NCBI GenBank assembly: GCA_964438715.1
Contig: CAYTLQ010000324.1
Span: 1-54,993, forward strand
Length of the DNA stretch: 54,993 nucleotides
DNA from: an uncultured Ignavibacteriaceae bacterium
GTDB taxonomy: Bacteria; Bacteroidota; Ignavibacteria; Ignavibacteriales; Ignavibacteriaceae
Reading direction: 5' to 3'
Both the position numbers and the translations under genes were made by a program. Shown piece after piece: positions 28,410-54,993 of this stretch (position 1 is its first letter; each line of letters begins with the position of its first letter). Below the pieces are notes generated by a model. It was given only the letters and a program-made list of their open reading frames with translations, did no database searches and was not told where the DNA came from.

Positions 28410-28410
28410 A

Positions 28411-29286
28411 TTAGCCTTGAATTAAGGTTAAAAATTTTTCAGCTTTGGCAATGCTTGTAGTTTCCTGACCCGCAATTCTAATGATCTCACCCAGCTTCTC
28501 TTTTGAGATCATGGATGAAAAATAATTCATATCATTATCTAATATTTCCTTACAAGTACTATACAACTGCTCTTCATTTTTTATTGTTTGAAACCCTAAC
28601 TTTGGAGTATCCTTAATAAAGAAAGTATTTGTTGGCTTCGGATTTAACGACCAAAAACCTTGAATAACCCCGGAGGTTTTAAGAAAATCTACCTTTTTTA
28701 TGTATGTATCAGTAATTGGACTGTTGCCTAAAATAATAATAGGAATTGTCGAAGAAGTAATGCTTGAAACACGAATGTTAATAGACTTACCTATCGCCTT
28801 GAGCATTGAATCGGAGCGAAGCAATGAGGGATTACCTTTATGCTGCTTATAATCGCCAATAACCTTTATTTTATTGGGTAGTGTAAATTCGTAATTCGAT
28901 ATTATGCTCATTTTTACTTCAAAAAGAAGTTTAATATTCTCTGCTTTTTGAGTTGTATTATTGGTAGTACAAATTGCCAGATCGGCGCTTGATTGCTTTG
29001 AAAGACCTATTTCTTCACATATAACACCGTTTATTGCATAGAGACCAAATTCATTTGCGATTGGTTCAAAAATGGTTTTACACCATCTTTCAGTATATTG
29101 TCCTATCAGCGAGTTTCTGCTTTGTAAAGTCTGACCATCTGCCTCGAACCCTTTTGGAACATAAGCATAAAAACCCCCTTGCAGATTATAAAACAATTGC
29201 TCAGGAGAAGCAAAATTTTTTAGCGCTTCTTTGAAAAATTTAACCTCAATATCGTTATTCCAAAGTTCCATTATTTTTCGTTTCAA
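28411..29286 (-). CDS. Putative type II restriction endonuclease (PD-(D/E)xK-like), cognate to the adjacent methyltransferase
   Basis: No family recognised. The candidate catalytic motif is SSADLAIC...(about 20 aa)...LFEVKMS (D ... E-x-K). It abuts the MTase tightly in the same orientation, and the segment looks AT-rich relative to its neighbours. Confidence 0.55.
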   Translation of the reverse strand: MKRKIMELWNNDIEVKFFKEALKNFASPEQLFYNLQGGFYAYVPKGFEADGQTLQSRNSLIGQYTERWCKTIFEPIANEFGLYAINGVICEEIGLSKQSSADLAICTTNNTTQKAENIKLLFEVKMSIISNYEFTLPNKIKVIGDYKQHKGNPSLLRSDSMLKAIGKSINIRVSSITSSTIPIIILGNSPITDTYIKKVDFLKTSGVIQGFWSLNPKPTNTFFIKDTPKLGFQTIKNEEQLYSTCKEILDNDMNYFSSMISKEKLGEIIRIAGQETTSIAKAEKFLTLIQG

Positions 29287-32261: not shown

Positions 32262-33653
32262 TTAAGAACAGGCGATTTCTATTTTCTTTTTAATCGCGTG
32301 AACCGTTTCTTTGAAATTATTATCAGTCTCTATCATATTCTGCACAGAAGTACATGCATGTATTACTGTTGAATGGTCACGACCGCCAAAGTAAAGCCCA
32401 ATATTTTTTAATGAAGTTGTCGTCATTTCCTTTGACAGATACATAGCAACCTGACGCGGAATTACAACTTCCTGTTTTCTTGTTTTATCACGCACTTTGT
32501 TTTCATCAATACGAAAATGCTCGCATGTAATTCGGGTAATACTATCCACAGAAATAACGATTTTTCTTGTTGTGGAAATATCGCGAACTGTATGTTTTAC
32601 AAGATCAAGGTCAACTGGCTTATTTGCTAACGACATATTTGCAAGCAGTCGGAGCAGACAGCCTTCTAATTCACGGATGTTTGAGGTAATATGTGTAGCA
32701 ATATATTCAAGCGCTTCCTGAGAAAGGGAGAGACCGAACTCATCCGTTTTCTTATTTAATATTGCAAGTCGTGTTTCATATTCCGGTGGTTCAATTTCAA
32801 CACTAAGCCCCCAATGAAATCTGGAAATAAGTCTTTCGGTAATACCTTTAATATCTTTTGGCGGCTTATCGCTGGTTAATACGATCTGTTTACCTTTTTG
32901 ATGTAGTGAGTTAAAAATATTAAAGAAAAGATCCTGCGTTTGTGTTTTTCCGGAAAGAAACTGGATATCGTCAAGTATGATGGTATCCATACTGAGATAA
33001 AAATTCTGAAACTCGTTAATTTTGTTGGAAAGAACATGCTCAACAAATTTAACAGTAAATTGATCGGTTGAAATATAAATAACCCTGTGGTCAGGGAAGT
33101 TTTCAAGAATTTTATTTCCAATAGCCTGAGCAAGGTGAGTTTTACCTAACCCAACTCCCCCATATACATACAAAGGGTTGAAGGCTGTTTTTCCGGGAGC
33201 ATCACCAATGGCAAATGCCGCAGCCGAAGCAAGCTGATTACCACCACCTTTAACAAAATTCTGAAAGGTATATTTTTTATTTAAATTTGACTCAAAAGGT
33301 GGAGCTTCGTTTACCGGCGATTTTGAAATCAGAGGTATTTGAATAAGAGGAGGTGGCGGTTCTTTTTCTTCGTATTTTTCGTTTATGACATATTCCAATG
33401 AACCATCCTGACCAATAACCTGCTCAATACAATCTTTCATCAGTCCCGAATAGCGCTGAGCTATCCAATCGTAATGAAAACTCCCCGGTAATTCAATCCG
33501 AAGCTTATTGTTCTCCAATGAAAGGGGATTTATTGGTTCAAACCATGTGCTGAATGTCATTGGGGTAACATTTTTTTTAATTATTTCGAGGCATTTACCC
33601 CAAACCATCACAAAATTCATATCATTTGTATAATTCTCTGCTTCAATCTTCAT
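32262..33653 (-). CDS. dnaA: Chromosomal replication initiator protein DnaA
   Basis: Walker A GGVGLGKTHL, Walker B ILDDIQFL, sensor motifs LTSDKPP and RLISRFHWGL, and the C-terminal DNA-binding domain (PRQVAMYLSKEMT..SLKNIGLYFGGRDHSTVIHA). Confidence 0.95.
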   Translation of the reverse strand: MKIEAENYTNDMNFVMVWGKCLEIIKKNVTPMTFSTWFEPINPLSLENNKLRIELPGSFHYDWIAQRYSGLMKDCIEQVIGQDGSLEYVINEKYEEKEPPPPLIQIPLISKSPVNEAPPFESNLNKKYTFQNFVKGGGNQLASAAAFAIGDAPGKTAFNPLYVYGGVGLGKTHLAQAIGNKILENFPDHRVIYISTDQFTVKFVEHVLSNKINEFQNFYLSMDTIILDDIQFLSGKTQTQDLFFNIFNSLHQKGKQIVLTSDKPPKDIKGITERLISRFHWGLSVEIEPPEYETRLAILNKKTDEFGLSLSQEALEYIATHITSNIRELEGCLLRLLANMSLANKPVDLDLVKHTVRDISTTRKIVISVDSITRITCEHFRIDENKVRDKTRKQEVVIPRQVAMYLSKEMTTTSLKNIGLYFGGRDHSTVIHACTSVQNMIETDNNFKETVHAIKKKIEIACS

Positions 33654-36631: not shown

Positions 36632-37564
36632 ATGATGAATATTCTGGAAATTAATAATGTAAAAAAACATTTCAAGGAAGTTCGTGCCGTTGATGGTATT
36701 TCATTTTCGGTAGCAAAAGGTGAGTTTCTTGCAGTTCTTGGGCCAAACGGAGCGGGTAAAACTACTCTTCTTGAAATGATTGAAGGCATACAGAATCCCG
36801 ATTCGGGAAATATTACTATAAGCGGCCTCTCATGGAACAATAATGAAAAGCTGTTACGAAAAATTCTTGGTATCTGCCTGCAGGAGACTGATTTTATTGA
36901 GCGACTGAATGTAGAGGAAACTCTTGAATTGTTTGCTTCCTTTTATGACTTACCCAAAGAGCGCGCCCTTGAATCGATGGAGCTTGTTAACCTTGCGGAA
37001 AAAAGAAAAGCGCTTACAAAAAATCTGTCCGGAGGTCAAAAACAGCGTCTTGCGCTCGGTGTGGCATTAATAAATAAACCGGAACTACTGCTTCTTGATG
37101 AACCGACCACAGGACTTGATCCCGCAGCGCGCAGGGAAATATGGGAAATTCTTCGTCGGCTTAAAGAAGAGATAAACATGACTCTGATTCTCACAACACA
37201 CTATATGGAAGAAGCTGAATATTTATGCGAGCGAATTATTATCCTCGACAAAGGGAAAATACTAGCCTCCGGCACTCTTGATGAGCTTCTTGCAAAATAT
37301 AAAAAATATGAAATTATTGAATTCAGTATTTCTGCTTCCGATGAAGAGCGCTTTACTCTTCCCCGTAATAATGTTACTATTGAATTGACTGAATCAACTC
37401 GTCCCGGTAATATTGTCATCCGCGTGGATGATATTGTTGGGTATCTTCCTTTTTTTCTTGAACAAATTTCTCATCAAAATATCGAACTGACCTCACTTGA
37501 ATGCCGGAAAATGACGCTTGACGACCTGTTCATTTCGTTAACCGGGAGAAGTCTTCATGCGTAA
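36632..37564 (+). CDS. ABC transporter ATP-binding protein (ABC-2/DrrA-like exporter)
   Basis: Walker A GPNGAGKTT, signature LSGGQKQRL, Walker B LLLLDEPTTGLD and an H-loop TTHYMEE. Confidence 0.9.
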   Translation: MMNILEINNVKKHFKEVRAVDGISFSVAKGEFLAVLGPNGAGKTTLLEMIEGIQNPDSGNITISGLSWNNNEKLLRKILGICLQETDFIERLNVEETLELFASFYDLPKERALESMELVNLAEKRKALTKNLSGGQKQRLALGVALINKPELLLLDEPTTGLDPAARREIWEILRRLKEEINMTLILTTHYMEEAEYLCERIIILDKGKILASGTLDELLAKYKKYEIIEFSISASDEERFTLPRNNVTIELTESTRPGNIVIRVDDIVGYLPFFLEQISHQNIELTSLECRKMTLDDLFISLTGRSLHA

Positions 37565-38639
37565 TATCCTGAGACAAATTTTTCTTTTAACCGCGATACA
37601 ATTCAAAGAATTTGTGCGGGAACCTGCTATATTATTTTGGACTCTTGGTTTCCCCGTTTTAATGGCATGGGGATTAGGAATTGCATTTACGAAGCAAAGT
37701 GAAGCGATACATCACGCCGGATATATTTCGGATAAGCCTCTCAATGCTTCTCCTTTCAGTAATTTTCCCAATGCTATTATAAACGGTAACACTCTACGAT
37801 TTACTATTGGCGATTCGTTGAAAGGTGCTGATATTTTCACCATTCACAAAGTCACCGAAAAAGAATCTCTGCGAAAGCTTAAACGAGGTGAGATTTCACT
37901 AATTATTAAAGACTATAACAATACTCTTTACTACCATTTCGACCCCAAAAATCCGGAAGCCAAACTGACACACTTACTTCTTTCTACTGTCTCAGATTTA
38001 ATAATTAATAAACGCAATATTGTTCCGTTGAAGCAGACCGGACTTCGTTACATTGATTTTCTTTTACCGGGTTTAATTACTCTTAATATTATGTCATCTG
38101 CAATGTGGGGAATAGGCTATTATCTTGTTGAGAGGCGTTCAAAAAAGCTGAATCGGAGAATGGCGGCAACTCCTATGAATCGTTTTGGTTACCTAAGTTC
38201 TTTTATTATTTCCCGCATCTTATTAAGCTCGGTTGAAACTTTTGTAATTTGGGCTTTTTCATATTTCGTTTTTGATGTAAGCTTTACCGGTAGTTTCTTT
38301 GCATTGGTTCTTTTGCTAATTGCCGGAAACATCTGTTTTTCCGGTATCGCTTTAGTAACTACAGCCCGCGTTGCAAATGTACAGATTGGTAACGGAGTAA
38401 TTAATGCCGTAACTTTACCTATGATGGTATGTTCAGGTATATTTTTCAGTTATCATAATTTTCCTGACTGGGCCATAAGTATTATTAAGCTATTTCCCCT
38501 GACAATGTTGACTGATGGCACAAGGAGCCTCTTTATTGAATCTGCCGGAATTAGCGATGTTTTTTTCTCTATATTTTATCTTTTTATCGGTGGGGTATTG
38601 TGTCTCCTCGCCGGAGTAAAACTTTTCCGATGGTATTAA
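37557..38639 (+). CDS. ABC-2 type transporter permease
   Basis: Overlaps the ATPase gene by 8 nt. It has an N-terminal TM, a large loop and then five C-terminal TM segments, the ABC-2 permease topology. Confidence 0.75.
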   Translation: MRNILRQIFLLTAIQFKEFVREPAILFWTLGFPVLMAWGLGIAFTKQSEAIHHAGYISDKPLNASPFSNFPNAIINGNTLRFTIGDSLKGADIFTIHKVTEKESLRKLKRGEISLIIKDYNNTLYYHFDPKNPEAKLTHLLLSTVSDLIINKRNIVPLKQTGLRYIDFLLPGLITLNIMSSAMWGIGYYLVERRSKKLNRRMAATPMNRFGYLSSFIISRILLSSVETFVIWAFSYFVFDVSFTGSFFALVLLLIAGNICFSGIALVTTARVANVQIGNGVINAVTLPMMVCSGIFFSYHNFPDWAISIIKLFPLTMLTDGTRSLFIESAGISDVFFSIFYLFIGGVLCLLAGVKLFRWY

Positions 38640-38730: not shown

Positions 38731-39705
38731 CTACTCTATGCTGATACGATTTATTCGCTGATGTAACAACTCTTTATATTCGGCTTTCTTTATCGGGGAA
38801 AGAAAACTTTTTTCTATACATTCAATCAGAAATTTTTCTTTCTCAAGAAACTTCTTGTGAATATTGCGAACACTTTTACTATTAATTTCAAGGGATTCTG
38901 CAAAAGCCGCAAAATCACTTTTCTTTAGGTTGCTCTTTTTTCCATTTAACGGCAAAGCCAATTCTTCATTATCCTGAGGAATTAACAGTTTGGTTGAAAG
39001 CAGATCGTACGCCGGGGCTAATATCACTTCATTCTCATTCGTAGTCAATAATGAGAAATTCTTTAAATGCATATCTGCATTACCGGTAATGAATGAGAAT
39101 AATGTCAATTCATAAAAATTTATGAGATCAAACAGAGGATAGCTTGAGTATTGTTTGACTACCTTACCGATTTTTTCCATTGATCCGCGATATTTATTTT
39201 CAGTTAATGTTCCGGTCAGTTGTGCCATATCTTCACAAGCTAACTTTCCTGTCCCTATCCTGTCAAATCGTTTTGTGATATAAGAAATTTCACCCGACTT
39301 TAATCGTATAAGCGAGTGTTCAGCAGTTTTTATTTTTACTATTCGGGCAAGATGCATCGTCAGGTCTTCAATTTCAGGCATCTCGGGATATTCCTCCACA
39401 GGCGGTTTTAGTATAAAATTACCAAGCACCCCAATAATCGATAGTCTTTTTTTCTTTGTTTGAGCATATTGACTCTCAATTGATATTTTCGGCTGAACTC
39501 CGGTTACTGATACACTTTTTTCCAAACTAAGAATGGCAAATCTCTGAATTTCTTCTAAAGTTAAAGGGATTTTCGGGGGACTTTCTTTTCCGAAAAATTT
39601 TTTACTGCATTTGGGATGAAAATCTACTATTTCCCCCTCCAAAGGATTATAGCAGTATAGGCATTTGTTTTCATTGTTATTCATTGTTTTTTTCTTCGGA
39701 GTCAC
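38731..39705 (-). CDS. HipT-like Ser/Thr kinase toxin (HipA C-terminal kinase core) with N-terminal zinc ribbon
   Basis: Kinase catalytic motif GNADMHLKNFSL and LAPAYDLLST. N-terminal CLYCYNPL...HPKCSKKFFG. The track start is a GTG at 39705; an ATG at 39684 is an alternative giving an 8-nt overlap. Confidence 0.8.
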   Translation of the reverse strand: MTPKKKTMNNNENKCLYCYNPLEGEIVDFHPKCSKKFFGKESPPKIPLTLEEIQRFAILSLEKSVSVTGVQPKISIESQYAQTKKKRLSIIGVLGNFILKPPVEEYPEMPEIEDLTMHLARIVKIKTAEHSLIRLKSGEISYITKRFDRIGTGKLACEDMAQLTGTLTENKYRGSMEKIGKVVKQYSSYPLFDLINFYELTLFSFITGNADMHLKNFSLLTTNENEVILAPAYDLLSTKLLIPQDNEELALPLNGKKSNLKKSDFAAFAESLEINSKSVRNIHKKFLEKEKFLIECIEKSFLSPIKKAEYKELLHQRINRISIE

Positions 39706-40601: not shown

Positions 40602-42962
40602 TCATTTAAGTAAAACTAATTTTTTAATTGCTTTATACTCTCCCGTTTCAAGAACATAAATGTACATTCCTCCCGGAAGTGTATATGCCTGAAACTCAAC
40701 TGTATGATTTCCCGCCTCGCGGTAAGAATTTTCCAATACGCTTACTCTTTCACCAAGCATATTATAGACCGCCAGTTTTACATACCCCGATTGCGGAAGC
40801 GTATAGTTTATTTTTGTTACCGGATTAAACGGGTTCGGGTAATTCTGCGAAAGTTCAAAACTAAACGCTGGTTTAACATTTACAACTATCGCATCGTAAA
40901 TTTTCATTGAACCATCATAATCAATCTGTTTCAAACGGTAATGATTTAATCCGGTGGCAGGATTTTTTTCCGTATATGAATAATTATGCGATGATGAAGT
41001 AGTTCCGTGCCCCGCTATAAATGCTATTGTTATCCAATGATTGCCGTCCAACGATTTTTCAACTTCGAATCCTTTGTTATTAATTTCGGAAGCTGTGGAC
41101 CATTCAACGAGCACGCTGTTATCAGGAGTTACAATTGCGGTGAATGATACAAGCTCGACAGGAACAATTGTGTATGATTTCAGCATAATATTATCAATAT
41201 ACCAGCCATCATACTGCAAACTTGCATCACTCCTGAAATAAAATCGTATTTTTATTACTTTTCCTGTATAGGCTGAAAGATCAATCCTTTCACGAACCCA
41301 CGAGGATTGTACTGCATCGTACAGTGGTTGTCCGTTTGGCTGAAAACTTCCTGTACCGGGATTCGTGTATTGTCCTGCAAGCGCTATCCATGTTGCACCA
41401 TTATCTGTTGATACCTGGAACATTCCATAATCGTAATTGTTTTCAATATTCCATTGAGCATCAAATTCAAGTTCAGCGCCAAGCACTGTTGTTAAATCAA
41501 TACTTTGATTATACATTAAATAACAATTCTCATTTGCTAAATAATTACCGGCGGGTGATTCAGTAAAAGAATATGGTGCTGAAACATATTTTCCCGTTGT
41601 AACATTCCAGTTGGCTGTTTTTGACCAGTCCGTAATTACATTAGCAGTGTCAGACATAAGTGTAACTGTCGGCGCAACATAAAATTGATGCAGAGATACC
41701 GGTGGAGTATGACCAGGTGGATTAAAACCACTTCCGCCTTCAGGACTTGTAGCAACAATGCTGGCGGCAGAATCCTGGGCGGCAATGTAATATTGTACAG
41801 CACTTCCAAGTGAAATATTCTGTATAGTAAAATTATATAATCCCGGCGTACCGGTGGGCTGACCAACAACATCGGTAAATGAAGAGAAACCTGAGCCGGT
41901 ATTAACGCGATACCACAGTCTTGGCGCTCCTGATCCGGTGCCAATTCCAAGTCCTGTTTGCACGGTTGCATTGAGTGTAATATTTCCGCCATTAACAGTA
42001 GATGCCATCGGCGTGTGCTGAATACGCATATTGAGATCTAAGGCGTATGTGGCAAGCGTGGCAATTGAAATCTTTGCGGCTTTGTGGTAAATTGTGTTAT
42101 TGAACCGCGAGACAATGTCGTTCGTGGTGTGATAATATGCATTGAAGTCGTTATCATCGTCTTCTATTAAAAGCACAGCAGAAATATTTTTATTCCAAAA
42201 GGAAGCATGGTCACTGGCTGTAATACCCGGAGTTTTTATTACCGGAACTATACCAATTCCATACATTGAATTAACCTCCAGCATCTTGGAGCTCAATGCG
42301 GGAGAATTTGCAATATTCCTGACATGAATATTCATTTTATTATCGTTGTTTGAGTCCCATGCAATCATATCAAGATTAATAACACCAAGAAGTGAATCAT
42401 TTGCGGTAAGTTGATTAGCATAATTGGCACTACCTACCAGTCCTTGTTCTTCTTCATCCCATAGTGCAAAAATTATAGTGTACGGAAAAGTATATTGAGA
42501 AAGCACTCTTGCGGCTTCTATAACAGCGGCTGTGCCACTGGCATTATCATCTGCTCCCGGCGCCAATGAACCACTCGGCATATCATCAAAGTGAGCACAG
42601 ATCATAAATTTTTGATTTGGATAACGGGTTCCCTGCTTAATTCCAATAACATTCTTTCCTGTCGAGCTCCACGCAATAATGGAAGTCGGAATTCCATAAC
42701 TTTCTAACTTTTGTTTTATATATTCACCTGCTTTATCATTTGCAGAATTGTTTTTATGGCGCGAAACAATTGTGTACGGTGTCCCTCCAATAGTGGTGGG
42801 AACATTACCTGAAAGTTCTTTAACGAAGAAAACCAAAGAATCAATATTTACCTGATTGATGATGTTCTGAATAAGTGACATTCGTTTTTGAGCATGGAGG
42901 GGAGCCGAAAGAACAAGAAGAATAAGCGCCAACCCACGGAAGTATAGATTAAGCCTCGACAT
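40602..42962 (-). CDS. Secreted M28-family metallo-aminopeptidase with extra beta-rich domains and T9SS C-terminal sorting domain
   Basis: M28 zinc-site blocks AHFDDM, GADDNASGTAAVIEAAR and ALWDEEEQGLVGS. C-terminal SQNYPNPFNPVTKINY...GMYIYVL. Confidence 0.85.
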   Translation of the reverse strand: MSRLNLYFRGLALILLVLSAPLHAQKRMSLIQNIINQVNIDSLVFFVKELSGNVPTTIGGTPYTIVSRHKNNSANDKAGEYIKQKLESYGIPTSIIAWSSTGKNVIGIKQGTRYPNQKFMICAHFDDMPSGSLAPGADDNASGTAAVIEAARVLSQYTFPYTIIFALWDEEEQGLVGSANYANQLTANDSLLGVINLDMIAWDSNNDNKMNIHVRNIANSPALSSKMLEVNSMYGIGIVPVIKTPGITASDHASFWNKNISAVLLIEDDDNDFNAYYHTTNDIVSRFNNTIYHKAAKISIATLATYALDLNMRIQHTPMASTVNGGNITLNATVQTGLGIGTGSGAPRLWYRVNTGSGFSSFTDVVGQPTGTPGLYNFTIQNISLGSAVQYYIAAQDSAASIVATSPEGGSGFNPPGHTPPVSLHQFYVAPTVTLMSDTANVITDWSKTANWNVTTGKYVSAPYSFTESPAGNYLANENCYLMYNQSIDLTTVLGAELEFDAQWNIENNYDYGMFQVSTDNGATWIALAGQYTNPGTGSFQPNGQPLYDAVQSSWVRERIDLSAYTGKVIKIRFYFRSDASLQYDGWYIDNIMLKSYTIVPVELVSFTAIVTPDNSVLVEWSTASEINNKGFEVEKSLDGNHWITIAFIAGHGTTSSSHNYSYTEKNPATGLNHYRLKQIDYDGSMKIYDAIVVNVKPAFSFELSQNYPNPFNPVTKINYTLPQSGYVKLAVYNMLGERVSVLENSYREAGNHTVEFQAYTLPGGMYIYVLETGEYKAIKKLVLLK

Positions 42963-46268: not shown

Positions 46269-47186
46269 TTAATAATAATTCAATCGAGCAAAAAATCGAT
46301 CAATGAGTTTTTCGTTCAGCGATGGCAGATCGGTTTTCAGTATTTTATAGTTGTATTTCGGAACCTGCATTTCATCAAACCATTTGCTCCAGTATGCTTT
46401 CATAATATCATAATCGTCGGTGTATGGTCCCCAGGGAGCAAATTCGAGCGCAAGAATGTGGAGTTGTTTCAGCGTAACACCTGCCGAAAGAAAACCATAG
46501 TCACCATTAGTAAAATCCGATTGCCAGTTAGGATTTTTCCGAAATTTTGAAACATGGGGTGCATTAGGTCCAATAAAACTGTAACGATTTCCTTTCTGAT
46601 ATATACTGTTAGCAAAATACATATAGCCATCGGTAACAACTACCAGAACATTGATAGTGTTGGGTTCATCGGAAATACAGTCATCTGTGGCACGATGCCG
46701 GAAATAATTGAAAATGTCTGAACCATTAAAATAACCGGCGGATGAAGCAATATTGTACAATTGTGTCAAATTATTTCGGTAAATACTATCCAAAGCGGAG
46801 TGCATTTTTCTTTTTTCATCAATCTCCAATTCAGCAAAATCGATGTCAAGCGCTTTTGCAATAGACTGGATTGTGGAATTAAAATGGTTTGGATAAAAAA
46901 CAACCTTAATACAGTCGTTTGCGGCAAATACACCTTTTTTATCCATCCCTTTTTTCATTGCGTGTACAACTCGCAGAATGGCCGCTATATCTTTTTCGGC
47001 CTGATCGGGATTTTTTATGGCAGAAATTCTGTCCGAGAGGTCAAGTAGTATGGTAATGTTATAGTTAGTATGTAGAACCGTTTCAGAATTTCCTCCGGAA
47101 TCTTTTTTCCCATTTTTACATCCGGTCAGAATTGTTATTGCAATAAAAAAGAAAGAAAAAAATTGTATCGCACTTTTCATAAGCAC
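46269..47186 (-). CDS. Hypothetical lipoprotein with a Rossmann/vWA-like strand pattern
   Basis: Lipobox LTGC. The pattern ITILLDLSDRIS ... IKVVFY ... NVLVVVTDGYMY resembles vWA beta1/beta2/beta4, but the MIDAS DxSxS motif is not intact (DLSDR). Confidence 0.6.
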   Translation of the reverse strand: MLMKSAIQFFSFFFIAITILTGCKNGKKDSGGNSETVLHTNYNITILLDLSDRISAIKNPDQAEKDIAAILRVVHAMKKGMDKKGVFAANDCIKVVFYPNHFNSTIQSIAKALDIDFAELEIDEKRKMHSALDSIYRNNLTQLYNIASSAGYFNGSDIFNYFRHRATDDCISDEPNTINVLVVVTDGYMYFANSIYQKGNRYSFIGPNAPHVSKFRKNPNWQSDFTNGDYGFLSAGVTLKQLHILALEFAPWGPYTDDYDIMKAYWSKWFDEMQVPKYNYKILKTDLPSLNEKLIDRFFARLNYY

Positions 47187-47288: not shown

Positions 47289-48509
47289 TCATAACTTTAT
47301 GCCTTTTTCTATGTAGAATTTCTCAATAGTATTTTGTATGGAAATTATATCCTCATCATTATATTGACCATTTTCGAGATATTGTATCCAGCCAATTCCA
47401 TATTTTGAGATAACATTTTTAAGTTTATTGGGGCTAAAGTACACTTTGTCCTGTGGATTCTGTAATGCTGCAGCTTGAAGCCGAAGGTCATTTATCAATC
47501 CATCAAGTCTTTCTATTTCATTCAGCAAAGCAGTTTCGGAAGCTTTCAGTGATGCTAAGTGTCCCTCCTTCTCGGCAATCATTCTCTCGTATTTATGACG
47601 AATGTTGCGTTCATTAAAAAACAAGTTCAGTACAAAACCAAAAATCAAATAGACAAAAAATCCAAAAGCAATTACAAACCAGAAGTTGGGATCGACTAAA
47701 GCATCAAAAACTGTAAATACTTTCTTTTCCTGGAAGGAATTCAGGCGTTCTATATCGCTCATTTTCTTTGATATATGAAAAGCCAGAAGAGAATCAATCA
47801 CGAAAGTAAAGATTATTAATCCATAATATTTAATTTTCTCTTTTCCTTTATAATCCCGATATGTGTGAATAAGAAATCCAAGAGCCAGAAAAATCCAAGG
47901 ACCAACAAGAACAAATAACAAAGTTTCTAAGCTTATTTCTAATGCTGTTCCGTAAACATTCGGAAAAAATATAGAATTAAATCTTGTGATTGACTCTGGT
48001 CGTATTTCTCTGAAGAAAGCAGAATAAATAACAGAACTGTAAAAAATATGCAAGAAAAGTGCCAGAAATATGACTACAAATAAATATATCCAATATTTTA
48101 ACGGATCTTTTTCTTTCTCAATATACTGATCAGGGTTTTGCTTTAATTTACGGAGTTCCTCCTCCACTTCATGCTGTCTCGCCCGGTTTTCTTCAAGTTT
48201 TCCTGTTTTTATCAACTCTATCGCTTTTTGATGGACGCTAATTTCAGCCTCTATTTTCTTCAGGGCAGTTTCAGCCTCGTGTTTCTTGGCATTATTTAAT
48301 TCCTCGTTTTTCTCGGCTTGTATCATTAAGTTGGTAAAGAATTTCTGAAGACTGATGTAAAAGGCTTCTATCTTACCACCAACACTTGCGGCATCGCGAA
48401 ATCCCTGTTTTTGGTAATTATGTTTATAGATCATACTGTTTGTGTGCCCGTTATTTGAAATAAATTGATTCTCATTATTTTCGCTTTTGTTGATATTCTC
48501 GTCAAACAT
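47289..48509 (-). CDS. Hypothetical membrane protein: four TM helices flanked by coiled-coil segments
   Basis: N-terminal heptad-like charged region (AKKHEAETALKKIEAEISVHQKAIELIK...EEELRKLK). Four hydrophobic helices follow (YWIYLFVVIFLALFL, LLFVLVGPWIFLALGFLI, YYGLIIFTFVIDSLLAF, FWFVIAFGFFVYLIFGFVLNLFF), then a second coiled coil (LASLKASETALLNEIERLDGLINDLRLQAAAL). Confidence 0.7.
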   Translation of the reverse strand: MFDENINKSENNENQFISNNGHTNSMIYKHNYQKQGFRDAASVGGKIEAFYISLQKFFTNLMIQAEKNEELNNAKKHEAETALKKIEAEISVHQKAIELIKTGKLEENRARQHEVEEELRKLKQNPDQYIEKEKDPLKYWIYLFVVIFLALFLHIFYSSVIYSAFFREIRPESITRFNSIFFPNVYGTALEISLETLLFVLVGPWIFLALGFLIHTYRDYKGKEKIKYYGLIIFTFVIDSLLAFHISKKMSDIERLNSFQEKKVFTVFDALVDPNFWFVIAFGFFVYLIFGFVLNLFFNERNIRHKYERMIAEKEGHLASLKASETALLNEIERLDGLINDLRLQAAALQNPQDKVYFSPNKLKNVISKYGIGWIQYLENGQYNDEDIISIQNTIEKFYIEKGIKL

Positions 48510-48651
48510 AGTGTAAATCTTTCTTCCTTAATTAATGTTATTGAAATTAGTAACGAATACTAATAATTATATTTTTCGTCTGCTGATCCTTTAAATACAA
48601 AAGTTCTATACTTTTTGTCTTCTGACCGGGTTGGTCATTGTATTATCCCTT

Positions 48652-48909
48652 TCATACTTTTATATCACTATTGGCTTCGCTCAAAGCTTCAGCTTTAATT
48701 CTCTCCCCATCGTAACGGACTTTGTTAAAGTCCCAATCGTGGAGGCTGAATGAGGTTTCCCACCGCCAGAATCCAACCTTAATGATACAATGTCCTCCTG
48801 CCTTTGTAGCAAGTGTTATATTGATTGAAAGTACATCGAATAGTGCGAGTCGGTATTCTTTACTGTTTATCTCTTGTGATGCACGGCTGCTAATCATTAT
48901 TACATTCAT
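48652..48909 (-). CDS. Hypothetical small protein (85 aa)
   Basis: The ORF has a purine-rich stretch (AGAGAGAG) upstream of the ATG. No recognisable motif; it could be non-coding. Confidence 0.4.
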   Translation of the reverse strand: MNVIMISSRASQEINSKEYRLALFDVLSINITLATKAGGHCIIKVGFWRWETSFSLHDWDFNKVRYDGERIKAEALSEANSDIKV

Positions 48910-49473
48910 CGTGTTACTCTCTCTTTTGTTATTAAATTTTCCCCTCTCATAATGTAACAGAGATCCACAAACCCTGAATTTCCAAAAAATTGTAAAGAAT
49001 TTTTAGTTTTTTTTTTCTGCTCAACGGGATTTTAGCAGATTACTATTTTCACGATGCCACCAGATAAATCGATAGAGCGTTAGTATGAATAACGATCTTC
49101 AGGCAGAATGCCAAACCTGTATATGCTGATTAAAACTGAGTTTTCATCCGAATAACTTTTGTGTTATGATAAAAACACAGGATCAAACTGTTTGATTCTG
49201 TTATATTTTAGTTTAACTCAAGGAGTGAAATTTAGTGCGATAGAGTTCAACAGAAATAATTAGACACTCCCCCATTATTAAACTATCAGATGCAATAATC
49301 TGATTTTCGAAGCGCAAAATTAATATTAATGAAATAAATAAACAAGAAAATACTGATTTTTGACGCAAAAAGTTTCGCTATGAGAACCCCGCTCAGCTAA
49401 CTGTGGTTGTACTCCTGTAAGTTCACCAAATGAAAAAGTTATTATTCCCGAATAAGTAAACAGCAAGAAGTTG

Positions 49474-50598
49474 TTACTTCAGAGTAGTTTTTGGCAAAAA
49501 ATATTCAAAAGACTCCCCAAGAGACCTGTTTGCTCCTCCCTGCGCTACTACAAAAACAAAGGCACGAGAGATGTTTTCATTCTTATCATCAGCATTGTAG
49601 CGACGAACAGCCATAAAATTACTTATATATTGTTCTTTTGCCAGAGAACCAAGCCTGGCATATAAGTATGCGGGACGCAAACCGTCCACAATCACGCCTT
49701 GTTTCGACGCCAATAAATCAAAAGCTCTTTGAAGATACTCACTCATTATTCTTTTGCTTTCGTCGTTCGTAAGATCTTCGGGGTGGCGAAAAAGGGCATA
49801 CGCGTGTTTCTTACCATCCCGTGCGGGTATATTCTTTAGTAATTCGACTGAAATTCGTCTTTTTCCCGGATTGTTCTTTCGCTTTAAGAAATCAATTATT
49901 TTTTTTCCGAATAATCTATCAAAAAAATTTGTGAGCGTTTTTACGGGAATAACTCTTTTCTGACCAAGATTGGTGCCTTCAGGAACAAAAAACTCCCACA
50001 GCTTCAGTCTTTCCGCCTTTATTATTTCCAATTTACTTTCAAGTGCGTCAACTTGAAAAATATTGGTATCGCCATCCCTAATTACGCCGGTAAATACCTT
50101 ATTAAAAGAGATTTTCTGACCGATAAGATAAGACATCGCAGCAGCCGCAACGGCAAGTAAATAGGATTTCCCATCCATCTTCTCAAGAAGAGGATTATTA
50201 TCAGGTAACCTAAAATTTACTGTAAGATTTTCTATGCCCCAGTCCAACACCATTATTTCGGGTTTAATATCTTTAAGTATATTATCAAGGTATTGTGCGG
50301 CTTGCTTCAAAATAAACCGGATATCAGAATCAACAGTACCTGGTGTGTTGGATTCCGTAACCACAACCTTACATAAAGAAGAAACATTCCTTTCCTTATG
50401 ATACACAGGGAAAAACGCTTCACCTGTTTGTAAATTTTGCTGTAGGGAGTAAAGAGTATGTACTCTTTCCAGTTCAGCCTCGAAATGTACTTTGTCTTCG
50501 AGATTATCTTTACTCTTTCGTATTAATTGTGAGTATATTTTTTTCGCCGTACGAAAATTGCAATGTTTTGTATGGAAAACCGCTAATTGCTCATCCAT
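49474..50598 (-). CDS. Lon (S16)-like Ser-Lys protease domain fused to a short C-terminal alpha/beta domain (CalpL-like architecture)
   Basis: Track ORF numbering. The segment MDGKS(164)YLLAVAAAAMSYLIGQKISFNKVFTG...VDALESK(208)LEIIKAERL...FFVPEGTN aligns to the E. coli Lon segment [32 protein letters not shown]...GGLKEKLLAAHR...VLIPFEN. The Ser-to-TG spacing is identical (26) and the Ser-to-Lys spacing is 44 versus 43. The likely start is the ATG at 50598 (M20 of the track ORF), giving a 16-nt overlap with the upstream gene; the ATG at 50655 would give 73 nt. Confidence 0.7.
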   Translation of the reverse strand: MDEQLAVFHTKHCNFRTAKKIYSQLIRKSKDNLEDKVHFEAELERVHTLYSLQQNLQTGEAFFPVYHKERNVSSLCKVVVTESNTPGTVDSDIRFILKQAAQYLDNILKDIKPEIMVLDWGIENLTVNFRLPDNNPLLEKMDGKSYLLAVAAAAMSYLIGQKISFNKVFTGVIRDGDTNIFQVDALESKLEIIKAERLKLWEFFVPEGTNLGQKRVIPVKTLTNFFDRLFGKKIIDFLKRKNNPGKRRISVELLKNIPARDGKKHAYALFRHPEDLTNDESKRIMSEYLQRAFDLLASKQGVIVDGLRPAYLYARLGSLAKEQYISNFMAVRRYNADDKNENISRAFVFVVAQGGANRSLGESFEYFLPKTTLK

Positions 50599-51476
50599 TC
50601 CAACATTACCTCGTGTTCTCTTTTTATACCATCGACATTGTACGAAATTTTCCATAAACCGTGTTTAAGAAGCTCTCTGTTAAATCTGGTAAAAGCTCGT
50701 TTTTCCTTTCCGGGGGAAATTTCCTGCTCAGTTGAATAAACCTCAGTTTCTTCATTTTTTAATAAAATATTATCGATCGTTTTTACTTTATCGCTTATAA
50801 TAACAAAATACATAAACCCATCTATGACCGATAACCTAATGATGATATGAGGTTGGTTAATCAGAGTAATTGAATTTTTTCTCTGCTCTCGTTCTTTTGT
50901 CCAGAACATAGCGGATTCAGTTTTAACCTTATTATCAGATGCTGCGATTTTTACCGGCTGATATTCTACCCCATTTGTATTTCGTGGGAGAAGGAGAATT
51001 AACGGAGATCTTAAAGATTCCTCATCAAGTGAATATTTCTCCTGATCTTCAAGAAGCGCAACCGCGCGGAAACGAAGCGGTTCAAGCAGAGAATTAATAA
51101 TACCAATATCCTGCAATTGTTCGGGATAATAGCCAAAATCCGTATTCTTCTCAGATTCTATCACTTTCTTTGTAACTGAATCAGAAAGGGTACCTAAAAA
51201 GTACTTTAATGAAGAAACCGGAAGGGGTCCCGCTGTTGCCCGGATTGCGACCCTTTTTGCCGCAAATATTCCTTTTGAAGCAGTTTTTGTAATAAGTACA
51301 TCACGATCATCGGTAATTGAGGTATAAAGCGAAACTACCATAGTCCTCACTGCGCCAAGTGAAGCAAATGTGGCATCGGTAATAATGACATCAATATCGT
51401 GTTCAAACAACCTCCAAACCTGCCCTTTACGATATTGAGTTGGGGTGTGCGTTAAATTATATAAAATATTATTCAT
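50583..51476 (-). CDS. Hypothetical 297-aa protein with a MazF/PemK-like N-terminal domain and a beta-rich C-terminal domain (CalpT-like architecture)
   Basis: N-terminal KGQVWRLFEHD...GAVRTMVVSL...DVLITK...VSSLKYFLGTLSDSVTKKVIESE follows the MazF/PemK strand order (GxxW..., R..VV, ...L...iG.ls......i). Its size of about 33 kDa and its position next to the Lon-like gene fit that architecture. Confidence 0.5.
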   Translation of the reverse strand: MNNILYNLTHTPTQYRKGQVWRLFEHDIDVIITDATFASLGAVRTMVVSLYTSITDDRDVLITKTASKGIFAAKRVAIRATAGPLPVSSLKYFLGTLSDSVTKKVIESEKNTDFGYYPEQLQDIGIINSLLEPLRFRAVALLEDQEKYSLDEESLRSPLILLLPRNTNGVEYQPVKIAASDNKVKTESAMFWTKEREQRKNSITLINQPHIIIRLSVIDGFMYFVIISDKVKTIDNILLKNEETEVYSTEQEISPGKEKRAFTRFNRELLKHGLWKISYNVDGIKREHEVMLEWMSN

Positions 51477-52530
51477 GATCGTTCACCGGAAAATGTTCGT
51501 GTATTCTGTATTCATCTGCGAGATACAAATAAAAATATTCGAGTGCATTACTGCTCTCCTCATTTACACCGGTAAGTACTTTCCCGATGAGCTGATTAAC
51601 TTTTTTAGAGTAATTTTCAGCAGAGCTTTTCTTAATATAGCGATGAGTGAGTTTCTCAATTTCCTCGAAGCCCAGGTTATAAACCCAATGTAAATACCAA
51701 GCTGTTGCAAATTTCGGCAATTTTTTACCTGTTTTGTCTAATTTGTTAAATCCATCTACCAATTCATGAAACAGAAATAAAACAGGTTCGGCAAGGGTTT
51801 TGTATTCTGTTTCACGAATTTTTTGAGTTCGGAGCAGATACGCCTCTTTCTCATCGGTGTCGTCAATTTCGTTAAAATCAACAACCGGATTATCAAGAGC
51901 ACCGTTAGCAATTTCTATCATCTCAATAATATCAGAGATGCGTACAGCTCTATTTTCCAAAATTTCGAAAATATTTTTTAAATAATTTTTTAATTTATTT
52001 TTTTTGTAGTCACCGGAAGTATCTCTAAACCTGTAGGAAGGAATTTCTGGCAGGGGAGAGGACTGAGAAAATTTCTTGTAAGCTGAATTGACATATAGAT
52101 AATCTTTGGAGAATTGACTCGGGATAATTTGAATCAGGTTTTCCTGTTGAAGCTCAGTACAAATTGACAATAAATGGCGTTTGAGAATCTTTTTCTCATT
52201 TGTTTGAAATTGACGCTCTAATAAATCTTTCACACTCACAATAATCTTTCTGAAATACCCAAATATTCTCTTTTTCGATTCTTCATCAACATTCACCACT
52301 GTTTCCCAAAAGTCATAATTTTTGTCAAACGATTTGTATAGAATTACGAAAAATTCACTTATAATCTGTTCTTTCAGGTTAGAGGATATTTGGGGAAAAT
52401 CTTTTGTGATATATCGTTTGATTTGATTAAAAAAGTTTTTTATTTCACCAGGCTTCGGTTGATCACCACGCTTGTGAGCAAGGTAGAATACCCTTAGTAA
52501 ACTCGAAATATTTTTGGATAAATCGCTCAT
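51469..52530 (-). CDS. Hypothetical alpha-helical protein; possible divergent sigma-70-family-like factor
   Basis: Predicted to be mostly helical. The segments EQIISEFFVILYKSF...RIFGYFRKIIVSVKDLLERQ (sigma-2-like) and ATAWYLHWVYNLGFEEIEKLTHRYIKKSSAENYSKKVNQLIGKVL (sigma-4 HTH-like) are only suggestive. An ATGA start/stop overlap links it to the upstream gene. Confidence 0.3.
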   Translation of the reverse strand: MSDLSKNISSLLRVFYLAHKRGDQPKPGEIKNFFNQIKRYITKDFPQISSNLKEQIISEFFVILYKSFDKNYDFWETVVNVDEESKKRIFGYFRKIIVSVKDLLERQFQTNEKKILKRHLLSICTELQQENLIQIIPSQFSKDYLYVNSAYKKFSQSSPLPEIPSYRFRDTSGDYKKNKLKNYLKNIFEILENRAVRISDIIEMIEIANGALDNPVVDFNEIDDTDEKEAYLLRTQKIRETEYKTLAEPVLFLFHELVDGFNKLDKTGKKLPKFATAWYLHWVYNLGFEEIEKLTHRYIKKSSAENYSKKVNQLIGKVLTGVNEESSNALEYFYLYLADEYRIHEHFPVNDHE

Positions 52531-52994
52531 AGTGAAGCCAATATTTTATTAAGAATTGCCTGTGCAGAGTCGGAAAGAACAAAAAATCGTTGGTTAAGAT
52601 TTTTCTGGACAGAAAACCACCTGTAGTAAATAAGAAAGTAGGTTGGTACTTTTACCTTTTCCTGAGGCGGCGCCGTCTTAAGACAAGGCGGATAATTTCC
52701 TCCAATAGGATGCGGTGTCGTTGTTCCCGGTGCAACATGTACAAGATCATAAGGTTTAAAGGTACGCGGAGTTTCTAAAACTACACATGGTCGTAAAGAA
52801 GACTTTATGTGAGAACTTTTTCTCTTGCTGTCAAATGGCACTGATTTATCTGCAATTCCCCAAACACTACCAAAATACAAGCCGTTTATTCGTTCCTCTT
52901 CTAAGGGATCGGTTTTTAATTTTCGGCGGGTAATACGAAGAGCTTTTCTTTTAACACCCGTTCTTTGAAGGAGTAGGGCAATCCGTTTTTCCAT
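52527..52994 (-). CDS. PemK/MazF-fold protein with a basic N-terminal extension
   Basis: GLYFGSVWGIAD...SSLRPCVVLETP...VHVAPGTTTPH...PTYFLIYYRWFSVQKNLNQRFFVLSDSAQAILNKIL follows the MazF/PemK pattern (GdiW, RPxVVl, v.PiTt, ...v...l...iG.Ls......i...l). Confidence 0.55.
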   Translation of the reverse strand: MEKRIALLLQRTGVKRKALRITRRKLKTDPLEEERINGLYFGSVWGIADKSVPFDSKRKSSHIKSSLRPCVVLETPRTFKPYDLVHVAPGTTTPHPIGGNYPPCLKTAPPQEKVKVPTYFLIYYRWFSVQKNLNQRFFVLSDSAQAILNKILASL

Positions 52995-53412: not shown

Positions 53413-54993
53413 GCTGTCGCATAAGTATAATAAAAAAAGAAGAGAAAAAGTGATAGCACCCTAATAAATACAGGCGGATAAGCGAATTAAAAGCAGTATA
53501 TTTTGCATACACATTACAAAGATAAAGACAAACCATGCCTGTACTCGCCCGGAGAAAAGCAAAGATACCACTTCCATTTGAGAAACCGGATTTGAATCAA
53601 TTGATCGATGAAAATTCGTTGCCAATGAAGCTTCACAAACTTATAAACCAATTGAATTTCAAGGATTTTTATGAGAATCTATCTGCTACGGGTGCGCCGA
53701 ATTATCCGCCCGAAGATATGATGTCAATCCTGATGTTGGCATTTAGTGAGGGGATATTTAGCACACGAAAGATAGAGGAGCGATGCAAAAGGGATCTGTA
53801 CTATTTATTTATAACGGAACAGAGGAAACCGGATCATTCGACGATAGCGCGATTTATCCAGAAGCATAAAGAAAGTATATCAAAACTTGGAGTACAGATA
53901 GTACAATTGGCTCGGGAAAAAAAGATAGCAAGTTTTGCAACCATAAGCATAGATGGAAGCAAAATAGCTTCATTATCCAGTAAGCGGCACAGCAAAAGAT
54001 CGGGTGGATTAGAGGCGCACAGGAGATATCTGGAAAAACAGATCGCAAAAGTATTAAAAAAAGTAGAAGTGACCGATAAACAAGAAGCCAAAGAAATACA
54101 GAAGTTGGAAAAAGAAGAGAAATGGTTACAGAAACGATTGGAGAAAACAAAGCAAGCACAGGAAGAACTGGCAAGAAGACAAAATGAGATACAACAGAAA
54201 GAACTTCGGGAGAGCCACCAGATAAACATAGAAGAGCCGGAAGCGCGGATGATGCCTATAATAGCCACAAATGGATATAATATTCAGCTCTCGACAGATA
54301 CAGCAACGGGAATAATAGCCGCACAGTCAGTAACGATTGCCCGTTCAGATAATAATGAATTTAAGCCGCAACATAAGAAGACCGAAGAGATATTAGGAGA
54401 AGATAGAAACCGGACATATTTAGGAGATTCCGGTTATAATAGCGAAGAGACCCTGGGATATGTGAAAGAGAATAATATCGATGCATACATCAATGATTCA
54501 AAAGAGAAAGAAAAGCAACCCGGTATCGAGGAGTTGAAAGCACGGGGGAAAAGATTAACGATTTATGATTTTGTATTTGATAAAGAAAAGAACGAATACA
54601 TTTGTCCGAACCGGAAAAGATTACGGGAGACAGAGACGCTGGTATATGAATGCGAACAGTGCGATGGCTGCGAAGTAAAAAATTTATGCTGTAGGACTAA
54701 GGAAAAAAGACGGATAACAAAGACAAGTTATACTATAATGCGTGAGGCTATGAGCGAGCGTGTAAGATCGAACAAAGAAAAGATGAAAGAGCGAAAATCA
54801 GTAGAACGAGTTTTTGGACAGATGAAGTGGAATTTGGGATTTAGAAAATTCCACCGAAAAGGAATAGACGGGGCGACGGTAGAATTGAATATTTTAGCTA
54901 TGGCAATAAATATGTTGAAAATATTCAACATATTATTGTGTTTTTATGAAATACGAGGTAAGAAAAACCGCTTACTGGTAAGACTGAAAGTAA
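53413..54993 (+). mobile_element. IS1182-family (IS5-like) insertion sequence; the left boundary is approximate and the right end lies outside the window
   Basis: The left boundary is inferred only from where homology between repeat copies A and C breaks. The element contains the transposase ORF. No terminal inverted repeat could be verified because the right end is absent. Confidence 0.6.
53535..54993 (+). CDS. IS1182-family DDE transposase; the C-terminal end runs off the window
   Basis: Hand translation from the ATG at 53535 is open to the window end; the terminal TAA is out of frame. The N-terminal transposase domain reads PPEDMMSILMLAFSEGIFSTRKIEERCKRDLYYLFI...PDHSTIARF. DDE-region segments are ISIDGSKI and YLGDSGYNSEE. 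A Cys cluster (CPNRKRL...CEQCDGCEVKNLCC) and the C-terminal VERVFGQMKWNLGFRKFHRKGIDGATVELNILAMAINMLK follow. It is absent from the ORF track because it lacks a stop. Confidence 0.85.
   Translation, partial: MPVLARRKAKIPLPFEKPDLNQLIDENSLPMKLHKLINQLNFKDFYENLSATGAPNYPPEDMMSILMLAFSEGIFSTRKIEERCKRDLYYLFITEQRKPDHSTIARFIQKHKESISKLGVQIVQLAREKKIASFATISIDGSKIASLSSKRHSKRSGGLEAHRRYLEKQIAKVLKKVEVTDKQEAKEIQKLEKEEKWLQKRLEKTKQAQEELARRQNEIQQKELRESHQINIEEPEARMMPIIATNGYNIQLSTDTATGIIAAQSVTIARSDNNEFKPQHKKTEEILGEDRNRTYLGDSGYNSEETLGYVKENNIDAYINDSKEKEKQPGIEELKARGKRLTIYDFVFDKEKNEYICPNRKRLRETETLVYECEQCDGCEVKNLCCRTKEKRRITKTSYTIMREAMSERVRSNKEKMKERKSVERVFGQMKWNLGFRKFHRKGIDGATVELNILAMAINMLKIFNILLCFYEIRGKKNRLLVRLKV

Follow-up and report, generated by a model that had tools for sequence, protein, structure and literature searches.

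A Lon-type protease with a Csx3-like domain, a probable cA4-activated analogue of CalpL, in a four-gene cassette of an uncultured Ignavibacteriaceae bacterium

The sensors through which type III CRISPR systems are known to signal are CARF and SAVED domains, along with a few folds unrelated to them. Csx3 has its place in these systems as an off-switch, a ring nuclease, and is otherwise found only in fusions of unknown function, for example with AAA ATPases. The closest known system to the gene described here is that of the protease CalpL, for which the CalpL-CalpT-CalpS systems of Sulfurihydrogenibium sp. YO3AOP1 and Candidatus Cloacimonas acidaminovorans serve as the reference; cyclic tetra-adenylate (cA4) induces the formation of CalpL filaments and cleavage in trans, and CalpS is a sigma factor resembling those of the extracytoplasmic function (ECF) type. 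The gene in question, g4, is located on the minus strand of a 54,993-nucleotide stretch of DNA from an uncultured Ignavibacteriaceae bacterium (contig CAYTLQ010000324.1 of assembly GCA_964438715.1, positions 1 to 54,993 of the forward strand; the window hereafter), where it closes a cassette of four genes, g1-g2-g3-g4. Its product combines a predicted Lon-type Ser-Lys protease with a domain that profile comparisons relate to Csx3/Crn3, and the explanation regarded as probable is that g4 is a type III CRISPR-associated, cA4-activated analogue of CalpL, having a Csx3/Crn3-type domain in place of SAVED as the cyclic-oligoadenylate sensor.

As in CalpL, a helical N-terminus in g4 is followed by a Lon domain lacking an ATPase, with the catalytic dyad near the same positions (S145/K189 in g4; S152/K193 and S154/K195 in the CalpL proteins of Sulfurihydrogenibium and Cloacimonas, respectively), and a C-terminal domain of the nucleotide-sensor type stands after the protease. 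The CalpL dyad had been given as about S152/K193 in a preliminary description of the window, made from the sequence alone, and this numbering is correct. Relatives of g4 are also found beside type III CRISPR-Cas genes, often with another cA4 effector, and the neighbour of about 290 aa (g3) has an invariant linker alanine, comparable with the P1 alanine of CalpT. In contrast, the sensor of g4 is a Csx3-like domain of 128 aa, whereas CalpL carries SAVED, which has about 250 aa; three helices form the N-terminal domain of g4 and six that of CalpL; and three conserved partners accompany g4 (about 155, 355 and 290 aa), whereas two accompany CalpL. The putative substrate g3 is without detectable MazF or DUF2080 similarity, unlike CalpT, which is MazF-like plus a DUF2080 anti-sigma factor.

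No description of a Lon-Csx3 fusion was found in the full-text literature, although the 2020 classification of CARF and SAVED proteins (PMC7498327) or its supplements could still list one. The Csx3 fusions found in the searchable literature are with AAA ATPases and with nucleoside triphosphate-dependent conflict-system proteins (PMC7159879). A parallel is offered by Csx15, reported to be a Rossmann-like nucleotide-binding sensor that oligomerises on ligand binding and whose fusion with Schlafen (Cash) is cA4-activated. As described, Csx15-Schlafen is like g4 in joining a small ring-nuclease-type sensor to an effector, and is set apart from it in the sensor (Csx15 versus Csx3) and in the effector (a tRNA nuclease versus a protease).

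Domain organisation of g4

In the list of open reading frames, g4 appears in a 393-aa reading. The real start is placed at M20, giving 374 aa, because the homologues (357-401 aa) align beginning at this residue, public gene calls contain the exact 374-aa product and not the 393-aa form, and the M20 ATG is preceded, at about 12 nt, by a GAGGT motif; the preliminary description had proposed the same start. Residues are numbered here from M20, which corresponds to the numbers of that description minus 19. The features of g4 are as follows.

49474 to 50655, minus strand: g4 open reading frame in the 393-aa reading, from the open reading frame list
49474 to 50598, minus strand: g4 Lon-Csx3 protein, 374 aa from M20 (start at nucleotide 50598, stop codon 49474-49476)
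50434 to 50598, minus strand: N-terminal three-helix TPR-like region, residues 1-55 (model helices 2-11, 15-28 and 33-54)
49879 to 50427, minus strand: Lon (S16, Ser-Lys dyad) proteolytic domain, residues 58-240, from Foldseek and the family profile
50164 to 50166, minus strand: codon of the predicted catalytic Ser145 (S164 in the preliminary description)
50032 to 50034, minus strand: codon of the predicted catalytic Lys189 (K208 in the preliminary description), 44 residues past Ser145
49477 to 49860, minus strand: Csx3/Crn3-like domain, residues 247-374, a putative cA4 sensor, from Pfam, PDB profile and hhalign comparisons

The g4 product thus begins with a short helical N-terminus, continues with the Lon S16 protease domain and ends in an alpha/beta domain of 128 aa, which is of the Csx3 type. 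The family is rare, having 64 cluster representatives at 50% identity in an exhaustive HMMER search with a 4-sequence profile, most of them full-length (roughly 360-400 aa), with about 10 shorter fragments and 4 somewhat longer sequences; a word-indexed protein search recovered only 3 relatives, even when using a profile. Single-sequence searches of Pfam, NCBIfam and PDB with g4 gave no match, and neither Pfam nor NCBIfam has a family model for any of the four cassette proteins. Family comparisons were made on an alignment of 51 sequences (26% mean column identity), to which the conservation counts below refer. The AlphaFold model of g4 built from this alignment has a predicted local distance difference test score (pLDDT) of 92.2 and a predicted template modelling score (pTM) of 0.89; the model was reliable only with the 51 sequences, since a first alignment of four sequences gave an unusable pLDDT of 43.6.

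In both sequence and structure, residues 58-240 are matched best by the archaeal LonB/Lon proteolytic domains (Methanocaldococcus jannaschii, 1XHK; Archaeoglobus fulgidus, 1Z0E), with the Ser and Lys aligned. The family profile matches 1XHK with E 2.4e-13 over 157 of 187 residues, placing the GkS of the g4 family on the GDS motif of 1XHK and EeK on its NEK, and also matches the Lon of A. fulgidus (6e-8), LonBA of Bacillus subtilis, mitochondrial Lon and, more weakly, Escherichia coli Lon (1rr9, E 0.0023). Foldseek aligned the g4 model with 1xhk at E 5e-9 (target-normalised template modelling score of 0.65, 186 columns) and gave 167 matches at E <= 0.001, including LonA, LonB and the Lon-like domain of RadA; among the matches listed for the whole model against PDB, only Lon-type proteins are present, and a viral library returned giant-virus Lon proteins and noise only. 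Individual family members have weak Pfam matches to Lon_C, ChlI and Birna_VP4, the last in three members (best E 3.4e-4), which recalls birnavirus VP4, a Lon-like Ser-Lys protease that also lacks an ATPase.

S145, S156 and K189 are the sole invariant columns of the alignment (51/51 sequences), and G143 and the motif F169-[ST]-G171 are nearly invariant. The spacing of the Lon motif given in the preliminary description is exact throughout (DGKS145, Ser at +11, Leu at +13, Gly at +15, TG at +25/+26 and Lys189 at +44), and the Lon-like domain with a Ser-Lys dyad that it had read from the letters is borne out by the Lon-like fold of the model, the profile match and the invariance of both residues; the fold match also implies that Ser145 and Lys189 lie side by side in three dimensions. 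In E. coli Lon, the dyad numbering of which is established, the Ser-Lys spacing is +43, compared with +44 in g4. No AAA family was found in g4 with Pfam or NCBIfam, and only about 55 helical residues stand before the protease domain, which rules out a canonical ATP-dependent LonA or LonB protease, as no AAA+ module precedes the proteolytic part. The g4 domain differs from LonB/Lon domains in that it has neither an AAA+ module nor a membrane anchor, that nothing points to a hexameric chamber, and that its gene, which also encodes a signalling domain, is part of a defence cassette. Sequence and model together support g4 as a predicted active Lon-type Ser-Lys protease without an ATPase.

Weak TPR matches were found in the N-terminal region of the family, one to a TPR protein in PDB (E 0.017, family profile) and one to Pfam TPR_8 in the member P0020, and the alignment with the CRISPR-Lon model of PADLOC starts within this helical region. 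By analogy with the N-domain of CalpL, these helices are a candidate partner-docking domain.

The C-terminal domain has a beta-beta-alpha-beta-alpha-beta-beta-beta order in the AlphaFold model; the beta-alpha-beta-alpha-beta-beta module described earlier is real, and the model adds a leading strand. The Foldseek search with the whole model did not reach this domain, because Lon matches filled the output. For Pfam scans and for a domain profile, the C-terminal domains of 48 family members were excised (alignment A7). Cas_csx3 (PF09620) is matched by 6 of these 48 domains, with a best E of 3.5e-5, and every other Pfam family only once; the domain of the window g4 itself has no Pfam match, and among the ten members chosen as most Csx3-like none matched Cas_csx3 at full length. 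Searched against PDB, the domain profile has as its top match Csx3 of A. fulgidus (AF_1864; structures 6vjg, 3wzi and 6yud, E 0.006), covering profile positions 18-121 of 127 and chain residues 13-95 of 110. With hhalign, the domain was matched to the single AF_1864 sequence with 96% probability, and to an alignment of 29 genuine Csx3/Crn3 proteins with 97.1% probability (E 5.3e-11, 93 columns). On these profile comparisons, the C-terminal domain of g4 is homologous to Csx3/Crn3.

Csx3/Crn3 is a type III CRISPR ring nuclease in which cA4 is sandwiched between two head-to-tail dimers, and which forms head-to-tail filaments around cA4 when the ligand is uncleavable (PMC7371418). The residues of A. 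fulgidus Csx3 (AfCsx3), with the cA4 contacts taken from the same work (PMC7371418), have the following counterparts in the g4 family.

S44 (cA4-contact loop): position 305, Asp in 35/51 and Ser in 13/51
G45 (cA4-contact loop): G306, in 47/51
R46 and G47 (cA4-contact loop): Leu, then Lys or Arg in 29/51
P48 (cA4-contact loop): Pro in 27/51
W50 (conserved aromatic): position 311, Tyr or Phe in 40/51
A66 (conserved): kept
G86-D87 (conserved): kept, with G361 as the equivalent of G86 in 49/51
H57 (invariant in Csx3): no His
D69 (invariant in Csx3): Tyr, Asn or His
R71 (invariant in Csx3): Gln, Asn or Gly
H80 (invariant in Csx3): gap, Asn, Gly or Ser
H60 (Mn site; invariant or nearly so in Csx3): His in 21/51, Tyr in the window g4

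The glycine loop of g4, V-D305-G306-L-R308-P309-A-Y311, corresponds to the cA4-contact loop S44-G45-R46-G47-P48-I49-W50 on the D69 face of AfCsx3 and is the best conserved part of the domain. The likeness to Csx3/Crn3 (AF_1864; 3WZI, 6VJG, 6YUD) extends over about 93 columns, nearly the whole of Csx3, with the same order of strands and helices and conserved equivalents of the G45 loop, the W50 aromatic, A66 and G86-D87, and both are associated with type III CRISPR systems. The differences are that the g4 domain is part of a protease fusion, Csx3 occurring by itself as a protein of about 100 aa; that its alpha1 helix is longer and its beta4 strand is followed by an insertion; and that the catalytic and Mn-site residues H57, D69, R71 and H80 are missing from the family, H60 being partly conserved.

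Regarding the activity of this domain, the D69A mutation abolishes the ring-nuclease activity of Csx3, R71A and H80A strongly reduce it, and H57A reduced RNA cleavage in an earlier study. With these residues absent, the g4 domain was rejected as a Crn3 enzyme. The contact loop is largely kept and the catalytic apparatus of Crn3 is not, and for this reason the Csx3-like domain, as judged from its residues, probably senses cA4 instead of degrading it in the Mn-dependent manner of Crn3. It would be quite improbable, by comparison, that the domain is primarily a ring nuclease that switches the signal off while tethered to a protease regulated in another way. Such a function would agree with the characterised Csx3 proteins, all of which are ring nucleases, with the SAVED domain of CalpL, which senses and also degrades cA4, and with the His found at the H60 equivalent in 21 of the 51 members; however, none of the H57, D69, R71 and H80 equivalents is conserved in the family, each being invariant in genuine Csx3, and the window g4 has Tyr at the H60 position.

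The preliminary description had considered a minimal CARF/SAVED-like or other ligand sensor, called a short unknown one. The module is indeed a domain of a ligand-sensor type, although neither SAVED nor canonical CARF, and it is no longer unknown, since Pfam, the PDB profile and hhalign allow it to be named as Csx3/Crn3-like. The possibility, raised at that time, of a well-known non-sensor domain does not apply, because Csx3 is a cA4-binding protein for which a distant kinship with CARF has been described; a STAS-like fold and a likeness to anti-sigma-antagonist domains have been described for it as well. A SAVED identity was discarded in view of the Csx3-like match, of the 128 aa of the domain, about half the size of SAVED, and of the PADLOC matches, which end before it: the alignments of the CRISPR-Lon and SAVED-Lon models with g4 (E 8e-9) are confined to its N-terminal and Lon regions, within model positions 16-193 of 455-470, with 18-187 of 458 in one of them. 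A canonical CARF was likewise discarded, there being no CARF family among the Pfam matches of the 48 domains; the PADLOC model PDLC01159 (CARF with two transmembrane segments, fused to Lon) matches only residues 159-221 in the 393-aa numbering, which is the Lon active-site region.

The four-gene cassette and its CRISPR-Cas neighbours

The cassette g1-g2-g3-g4 lies entirely on the minus strand with overlapping junctions, and g4 is always the last gene. The upstream genes in the window are as follows.

52527 to 52994, minus strand: g1, 155 aa, overlapping g2 by 4 nt
51469 to 52530, minus strand: g2, 353 aa, overlapping g3 by 8 nt
50583 to 51476, minus strand: g3, 297 aa, overlapping g4 by 16 nt
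50934 to 50945, minus strand: codons of the g3 linker A178-A179-S180-D181, which reads I-A-A-S-D

Loci of g4 relatives were searched with a GEAFFPV-based subset of the alignment. The order and the conserved protein sizes (about 155, 355, 290 and 375 aa) recur at 25-45% identity in the loci L001, L004, L008, L009, L014, L016, L017 and L018, and partly in L003, L007 and L011. In loci of the Melioribacter type, g1 is also preceded at about 280 bp by a called gene of 58 aa without a family match (7146-7322 in L001 and 1309-1485 in L002).

The gene directly upstream of g4, g3, is conserved in 12 loci. In its product a variable linker separates the N-terminal two-thirds from the C-terminal third, and in every homologue this linker, about 60% along the protein, has the motif [AV]-A-[SAED]-[DN], with Ala179 invariant. 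CalpT (271 aa) is cut by CalpL after an alanine in a flexible linker about 70% along the protein, at VA|ST in Sulfurihydrogenibium and at LAA|A in Cloacimonas. This cleavage uncovers an Ala-Ala degron, and the S1 pocket of CalpL is thought to accept Ala or Gly only. Because of these properties of CalpT and CalpL, g3 is most likely the candidate substrate of g4 and an analogue of CalpT, which would be cleaved after Ala179. No Pfam or PDB sequence match was found for g3, and a MazF-like or g1-related N-terminus was rejected at an hhalign probability of 0.2%. Nor did sequence searches of PDB with g3 and g2 find a solved CalpT, CalpS or sigma structure.

The g2 product, conserved in the cassette, has a C-terminal helix-turn-helix (HTH), matched in one member each by the Pfam families HTH_WhiA (E 3.6e-4) and HTH_Tnp_4 (E 1.7e-3). 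With hhalign, against the E. coli RpoE sequence, its two ends gave weak but colinear matches to region 2 (E 0.015) and region 4 (E 0.027). None of these g2 matches is significant by itself; they suggest that g2 is possibly a divergent sigma-like factor, analogous to CalpS, while being insufficient for a clear ECF sigma factor, which was not accepted. The g1 product, conserved in 9 loci, matched PemK_toxin of Pfam in 3 of 5 members (E 0.1, 0.0058 and 0.16, the best one over profile positions 9-106 of 109), had MazF structures as its top PDB matches (E 0.25 and 0.79) and gave E 0.011 in a pairwise hhalign comparison with MazF/PemK. A MazF/PemK-like fold is a weak possibility for g1 on these scores, and the assignments of g1 and g2, each taken alone, are not secure. 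In L007 no g1-like open reading frame was found upstream of g2 (positions 1-1200), and for this reason the MazF-like g1 may be dispensable or lost in some lineages.

Type III CRISPR-Cas genes adjoin the cassette in 5 of 10 loci, three times with the cA4 effector Card1. In several of these loci the host is known from a metagenome-assembled genome (MAG).

L001/L010 (Melioribacter roseus MAG): Cas10/Csm1, Csm2-5 (Csm2 and RAMPs), a CARF protein and Card1, directly downstream of the cassette
L003: RAMP gene, directly downstream
L009 (Bacteroidetes MAG): RT-Cas1 and a 16-repeat CRISPR array, directly upstream
L011 (Desulfuromonadales MAG): Card1 and Cas6, downstream
L017: Cas1 upstream; Card1, Cas10 and four RAMP proteins downstream

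In the related loci, the cas genes or Card1 start no more than about 100 bp past the g4 stop codon. Can1-2/Card1 is cA4-activated, and co-located effectors nearly always share their messenger (PMC11229360); this supports cA4 as the signal of the cassette. At positions 2711-6638 of L009, a fusion of reverse transcriptase (RT), maturase and Cas1 domains is followed by the array, with the repeat core ATTTAAAATTGAATCGAACCATAGTGGGATTGAGAC; because RT-Cas1 and the array lie immediately upstream of the cassette, the host of L009, to judge by its genes, could acquire spacers from RNA.

Several observations weigh against g4 as a CRISPR-associated, cA4-activated analogue of CalpL. No cas gene or CRISPR array is present in the whole 54,993-bp window contig, and cas genes were not found in the available flanks of five loci (the window, L007, L008, L014 and L016/L018), four of which have a flank of only 1-9 kb. 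The g4-family profile retrieved no CalpL chains from PDB at E <= 1, so that in sequence the Lon domain of g4 is no closer to CalpL than to archaeal LonB; with SAVED also absent, g4 was not accepted as a strict member of the CalpL family. The nearly invariant Asn323 of the family is Gln in the window g4, and the residues of the H60 face of Csx3 are only partly kept, for which reasons dimer-on-dimer stacking may not be conserved. The sigma-like and MazF-like readings of g2 and g1 rest on sub-threshold scores, g3 resembles neither MazF nor DUF2080 detectably, and the binding of cA4, the oligomerisation and the substrate of the g4 family are all inferred.

Some of the same observations would suit a stand-alone, CRISPR-independent module, similar to toxin-antitoxin or abortive-infection systems, in which Lon degrades or processes a partner (for example an antitoxin of the MazF-like g1) and the C-terminal domain is a STAS-like partner-switching module. 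This is judged unlikely. It would account for the absence of cas genes within 49 kb on one side of the window copy and in the flanks of L007, L008, L014 and L016, for the recurrent weak PemK/MazF matches of g1, for the loss of the Crn3 catalytic residues and for the resemblance of the Csx3 fold to STAS and anti-sigma-antagonist domains. However, five independent and diverged loci have the cassette beside Cas10/RAMP, Cas1, Cas6, Card1 or an array, and most of the loci without cas genes have short flanks of 1-4 kb; the domain matches are specific to Cas_csx3 and not to STAS families, and the part of the domain conserved best is precisely the cA4-contact glycine loop.

The window copy and its surroundings

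Upstream of g1, at a distance of 540 bp, begins the gene of an insertion sequence (IS) transposase of the IS5/IS1182 type with a DDE motif (53535 to 54993, plus strand; DUF772, DDE_Tnp_1 and DDE_Tnp_1_6), of at least 486 aa, which runs off the contig end. The window contig probably breaks at this repeated IS, hiding the sequence upstream of g1, and since assemblies typically break at an IS, cas genes may follow shortly after the contig end. With no cas genes on its contig, the window g4 would depend for its signal on a type III system located in another part of the genome. No cas remnant or CRISPR array was found near the cassette in the window, no Rfam RNA matched anywhere in the window, and promoter and terminator scans performed no better than shuffled controls.

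The transposase gene, the contig without cas genes and the Gln in place of the nearly invariant N323 could also indicate that the window copy is an orphan remnant, split from a CRISPR-Cas locus (for example by the IS element) and no longer functional in defence. The prospect of this is slight. The four genes are all intact with their overlapping junctions, and so are the dyad and the glycine loop; a copy of the whole cassette, 98% identical, is present in another sample, which argues for a maintained sequence and not for decay; and the contig end at the IS is of the kind expected from assembly, with cas genes possibly beyond.

On the other side of the cassette, a gap of about 960 bp separates g4 from the next gene (48510 to 49473), containing short open reading frames only and no convincing gene; no repeat array or Rfam match was found in it. 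The next two genes are unannotated and encode a 406-aa coiled-coil protein with predicted membrane segments (47289 to 48509, minus strand) and a putative lipoprotein of 305 aa that matches VWA weakly (46269 to 47186, minus strand; E 0.037). Both also follow g4 on the near-identical Logan contig L012, and they are not conserved beside the cassette in other loci.

Further away on the minus strand, the window contains a HipA-like kinase gene (38731 to 39705; HipA_C, E 1.6e-43), a toxin of the toxin-antitoxin type, adjoining an ABC transporter pair (36632 to 38639), and an N6/N4 DNA methyltransferase gene (27450 to 29286; E 1.4e-47), abutting a gene for a 291-aa protein without a family match, with which it may form a restriction-modification pair. 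Four large secreted proteins with the C-terminal sorting domain of type IX secretion, Por_Secre_tail, are encoded at 1237 to 8101 and 40602 to 42962 and suggest a host of the FCB group (Bacteroidota or Ignavibacteriota); a full-length DnaA gene is located at 32262 to 33653, with no clear turning point nearby in the coarse cumulative GC skew.

Proposed mechanism and meaning

Under the probable explanation of g4 as a cA4-activated analogue of CalpL, Cas10 of a type III system would make cA4, which would bind to the glycine-loop face of the Csx3-like domain. Ligand binding could then drive the oligomerisation or stacking of g4, by analogy with the filaments of Csx3 and CalpL, and the stacking would put the Lon site of one subunit beside a g3 docked on the neighbouring subunit, possibly on the N-terminal helices, as CalpT docks on the N-domain of CalpL. 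In the next step, g4 would cut g3 after Ala179 (A-A|S-D), leaving an Ala-Ala C-terminus as a possible degron. The cleavage might release or destabilise the complex, freeing g2 for a transcriptional output, g1 as a possible toxin, or both. The removal of the cA4 signal would be left to other enzymes, because the g4 domain has lost the catalytic residues of Crn3.

More tentatively, and with somewhat less than even confidence, g4 may represent the first activating sensor of the Csx3/Crn3 fold, a stacking Lon-Csx3 protease running a four-component cascade unlike that of CalpL-CalpT-CalpS. In such a cascade, the protease would act with g3 as a cleavable adaptor, g2 as a large HTH protein of sigma-like character and g1 as a free MazF-like protein, and transcription could be coupled to toxin release.

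The cA4 ligand, the Ser145/Lys189 dyad and the cleavage of g3 after Ala179 are directly testable predictions, and a compact cA4-gated, site-specific protease of 374 aa could serve as a tool, as has been explored for CalpL. The cassette adds a defence system of four genes, previously unannotated, to MAGs of Ignavibacteriota, Bacteroidota and Desulfuromonadales. The conserved Lon-Csx3 fusion implies that the fold of an off-switch has been turned into the on-switch of a protease, independently of the SAVED domain of CalpL, and it would extend the rule of activation by ligand-induced stacking to a second sensor fold.

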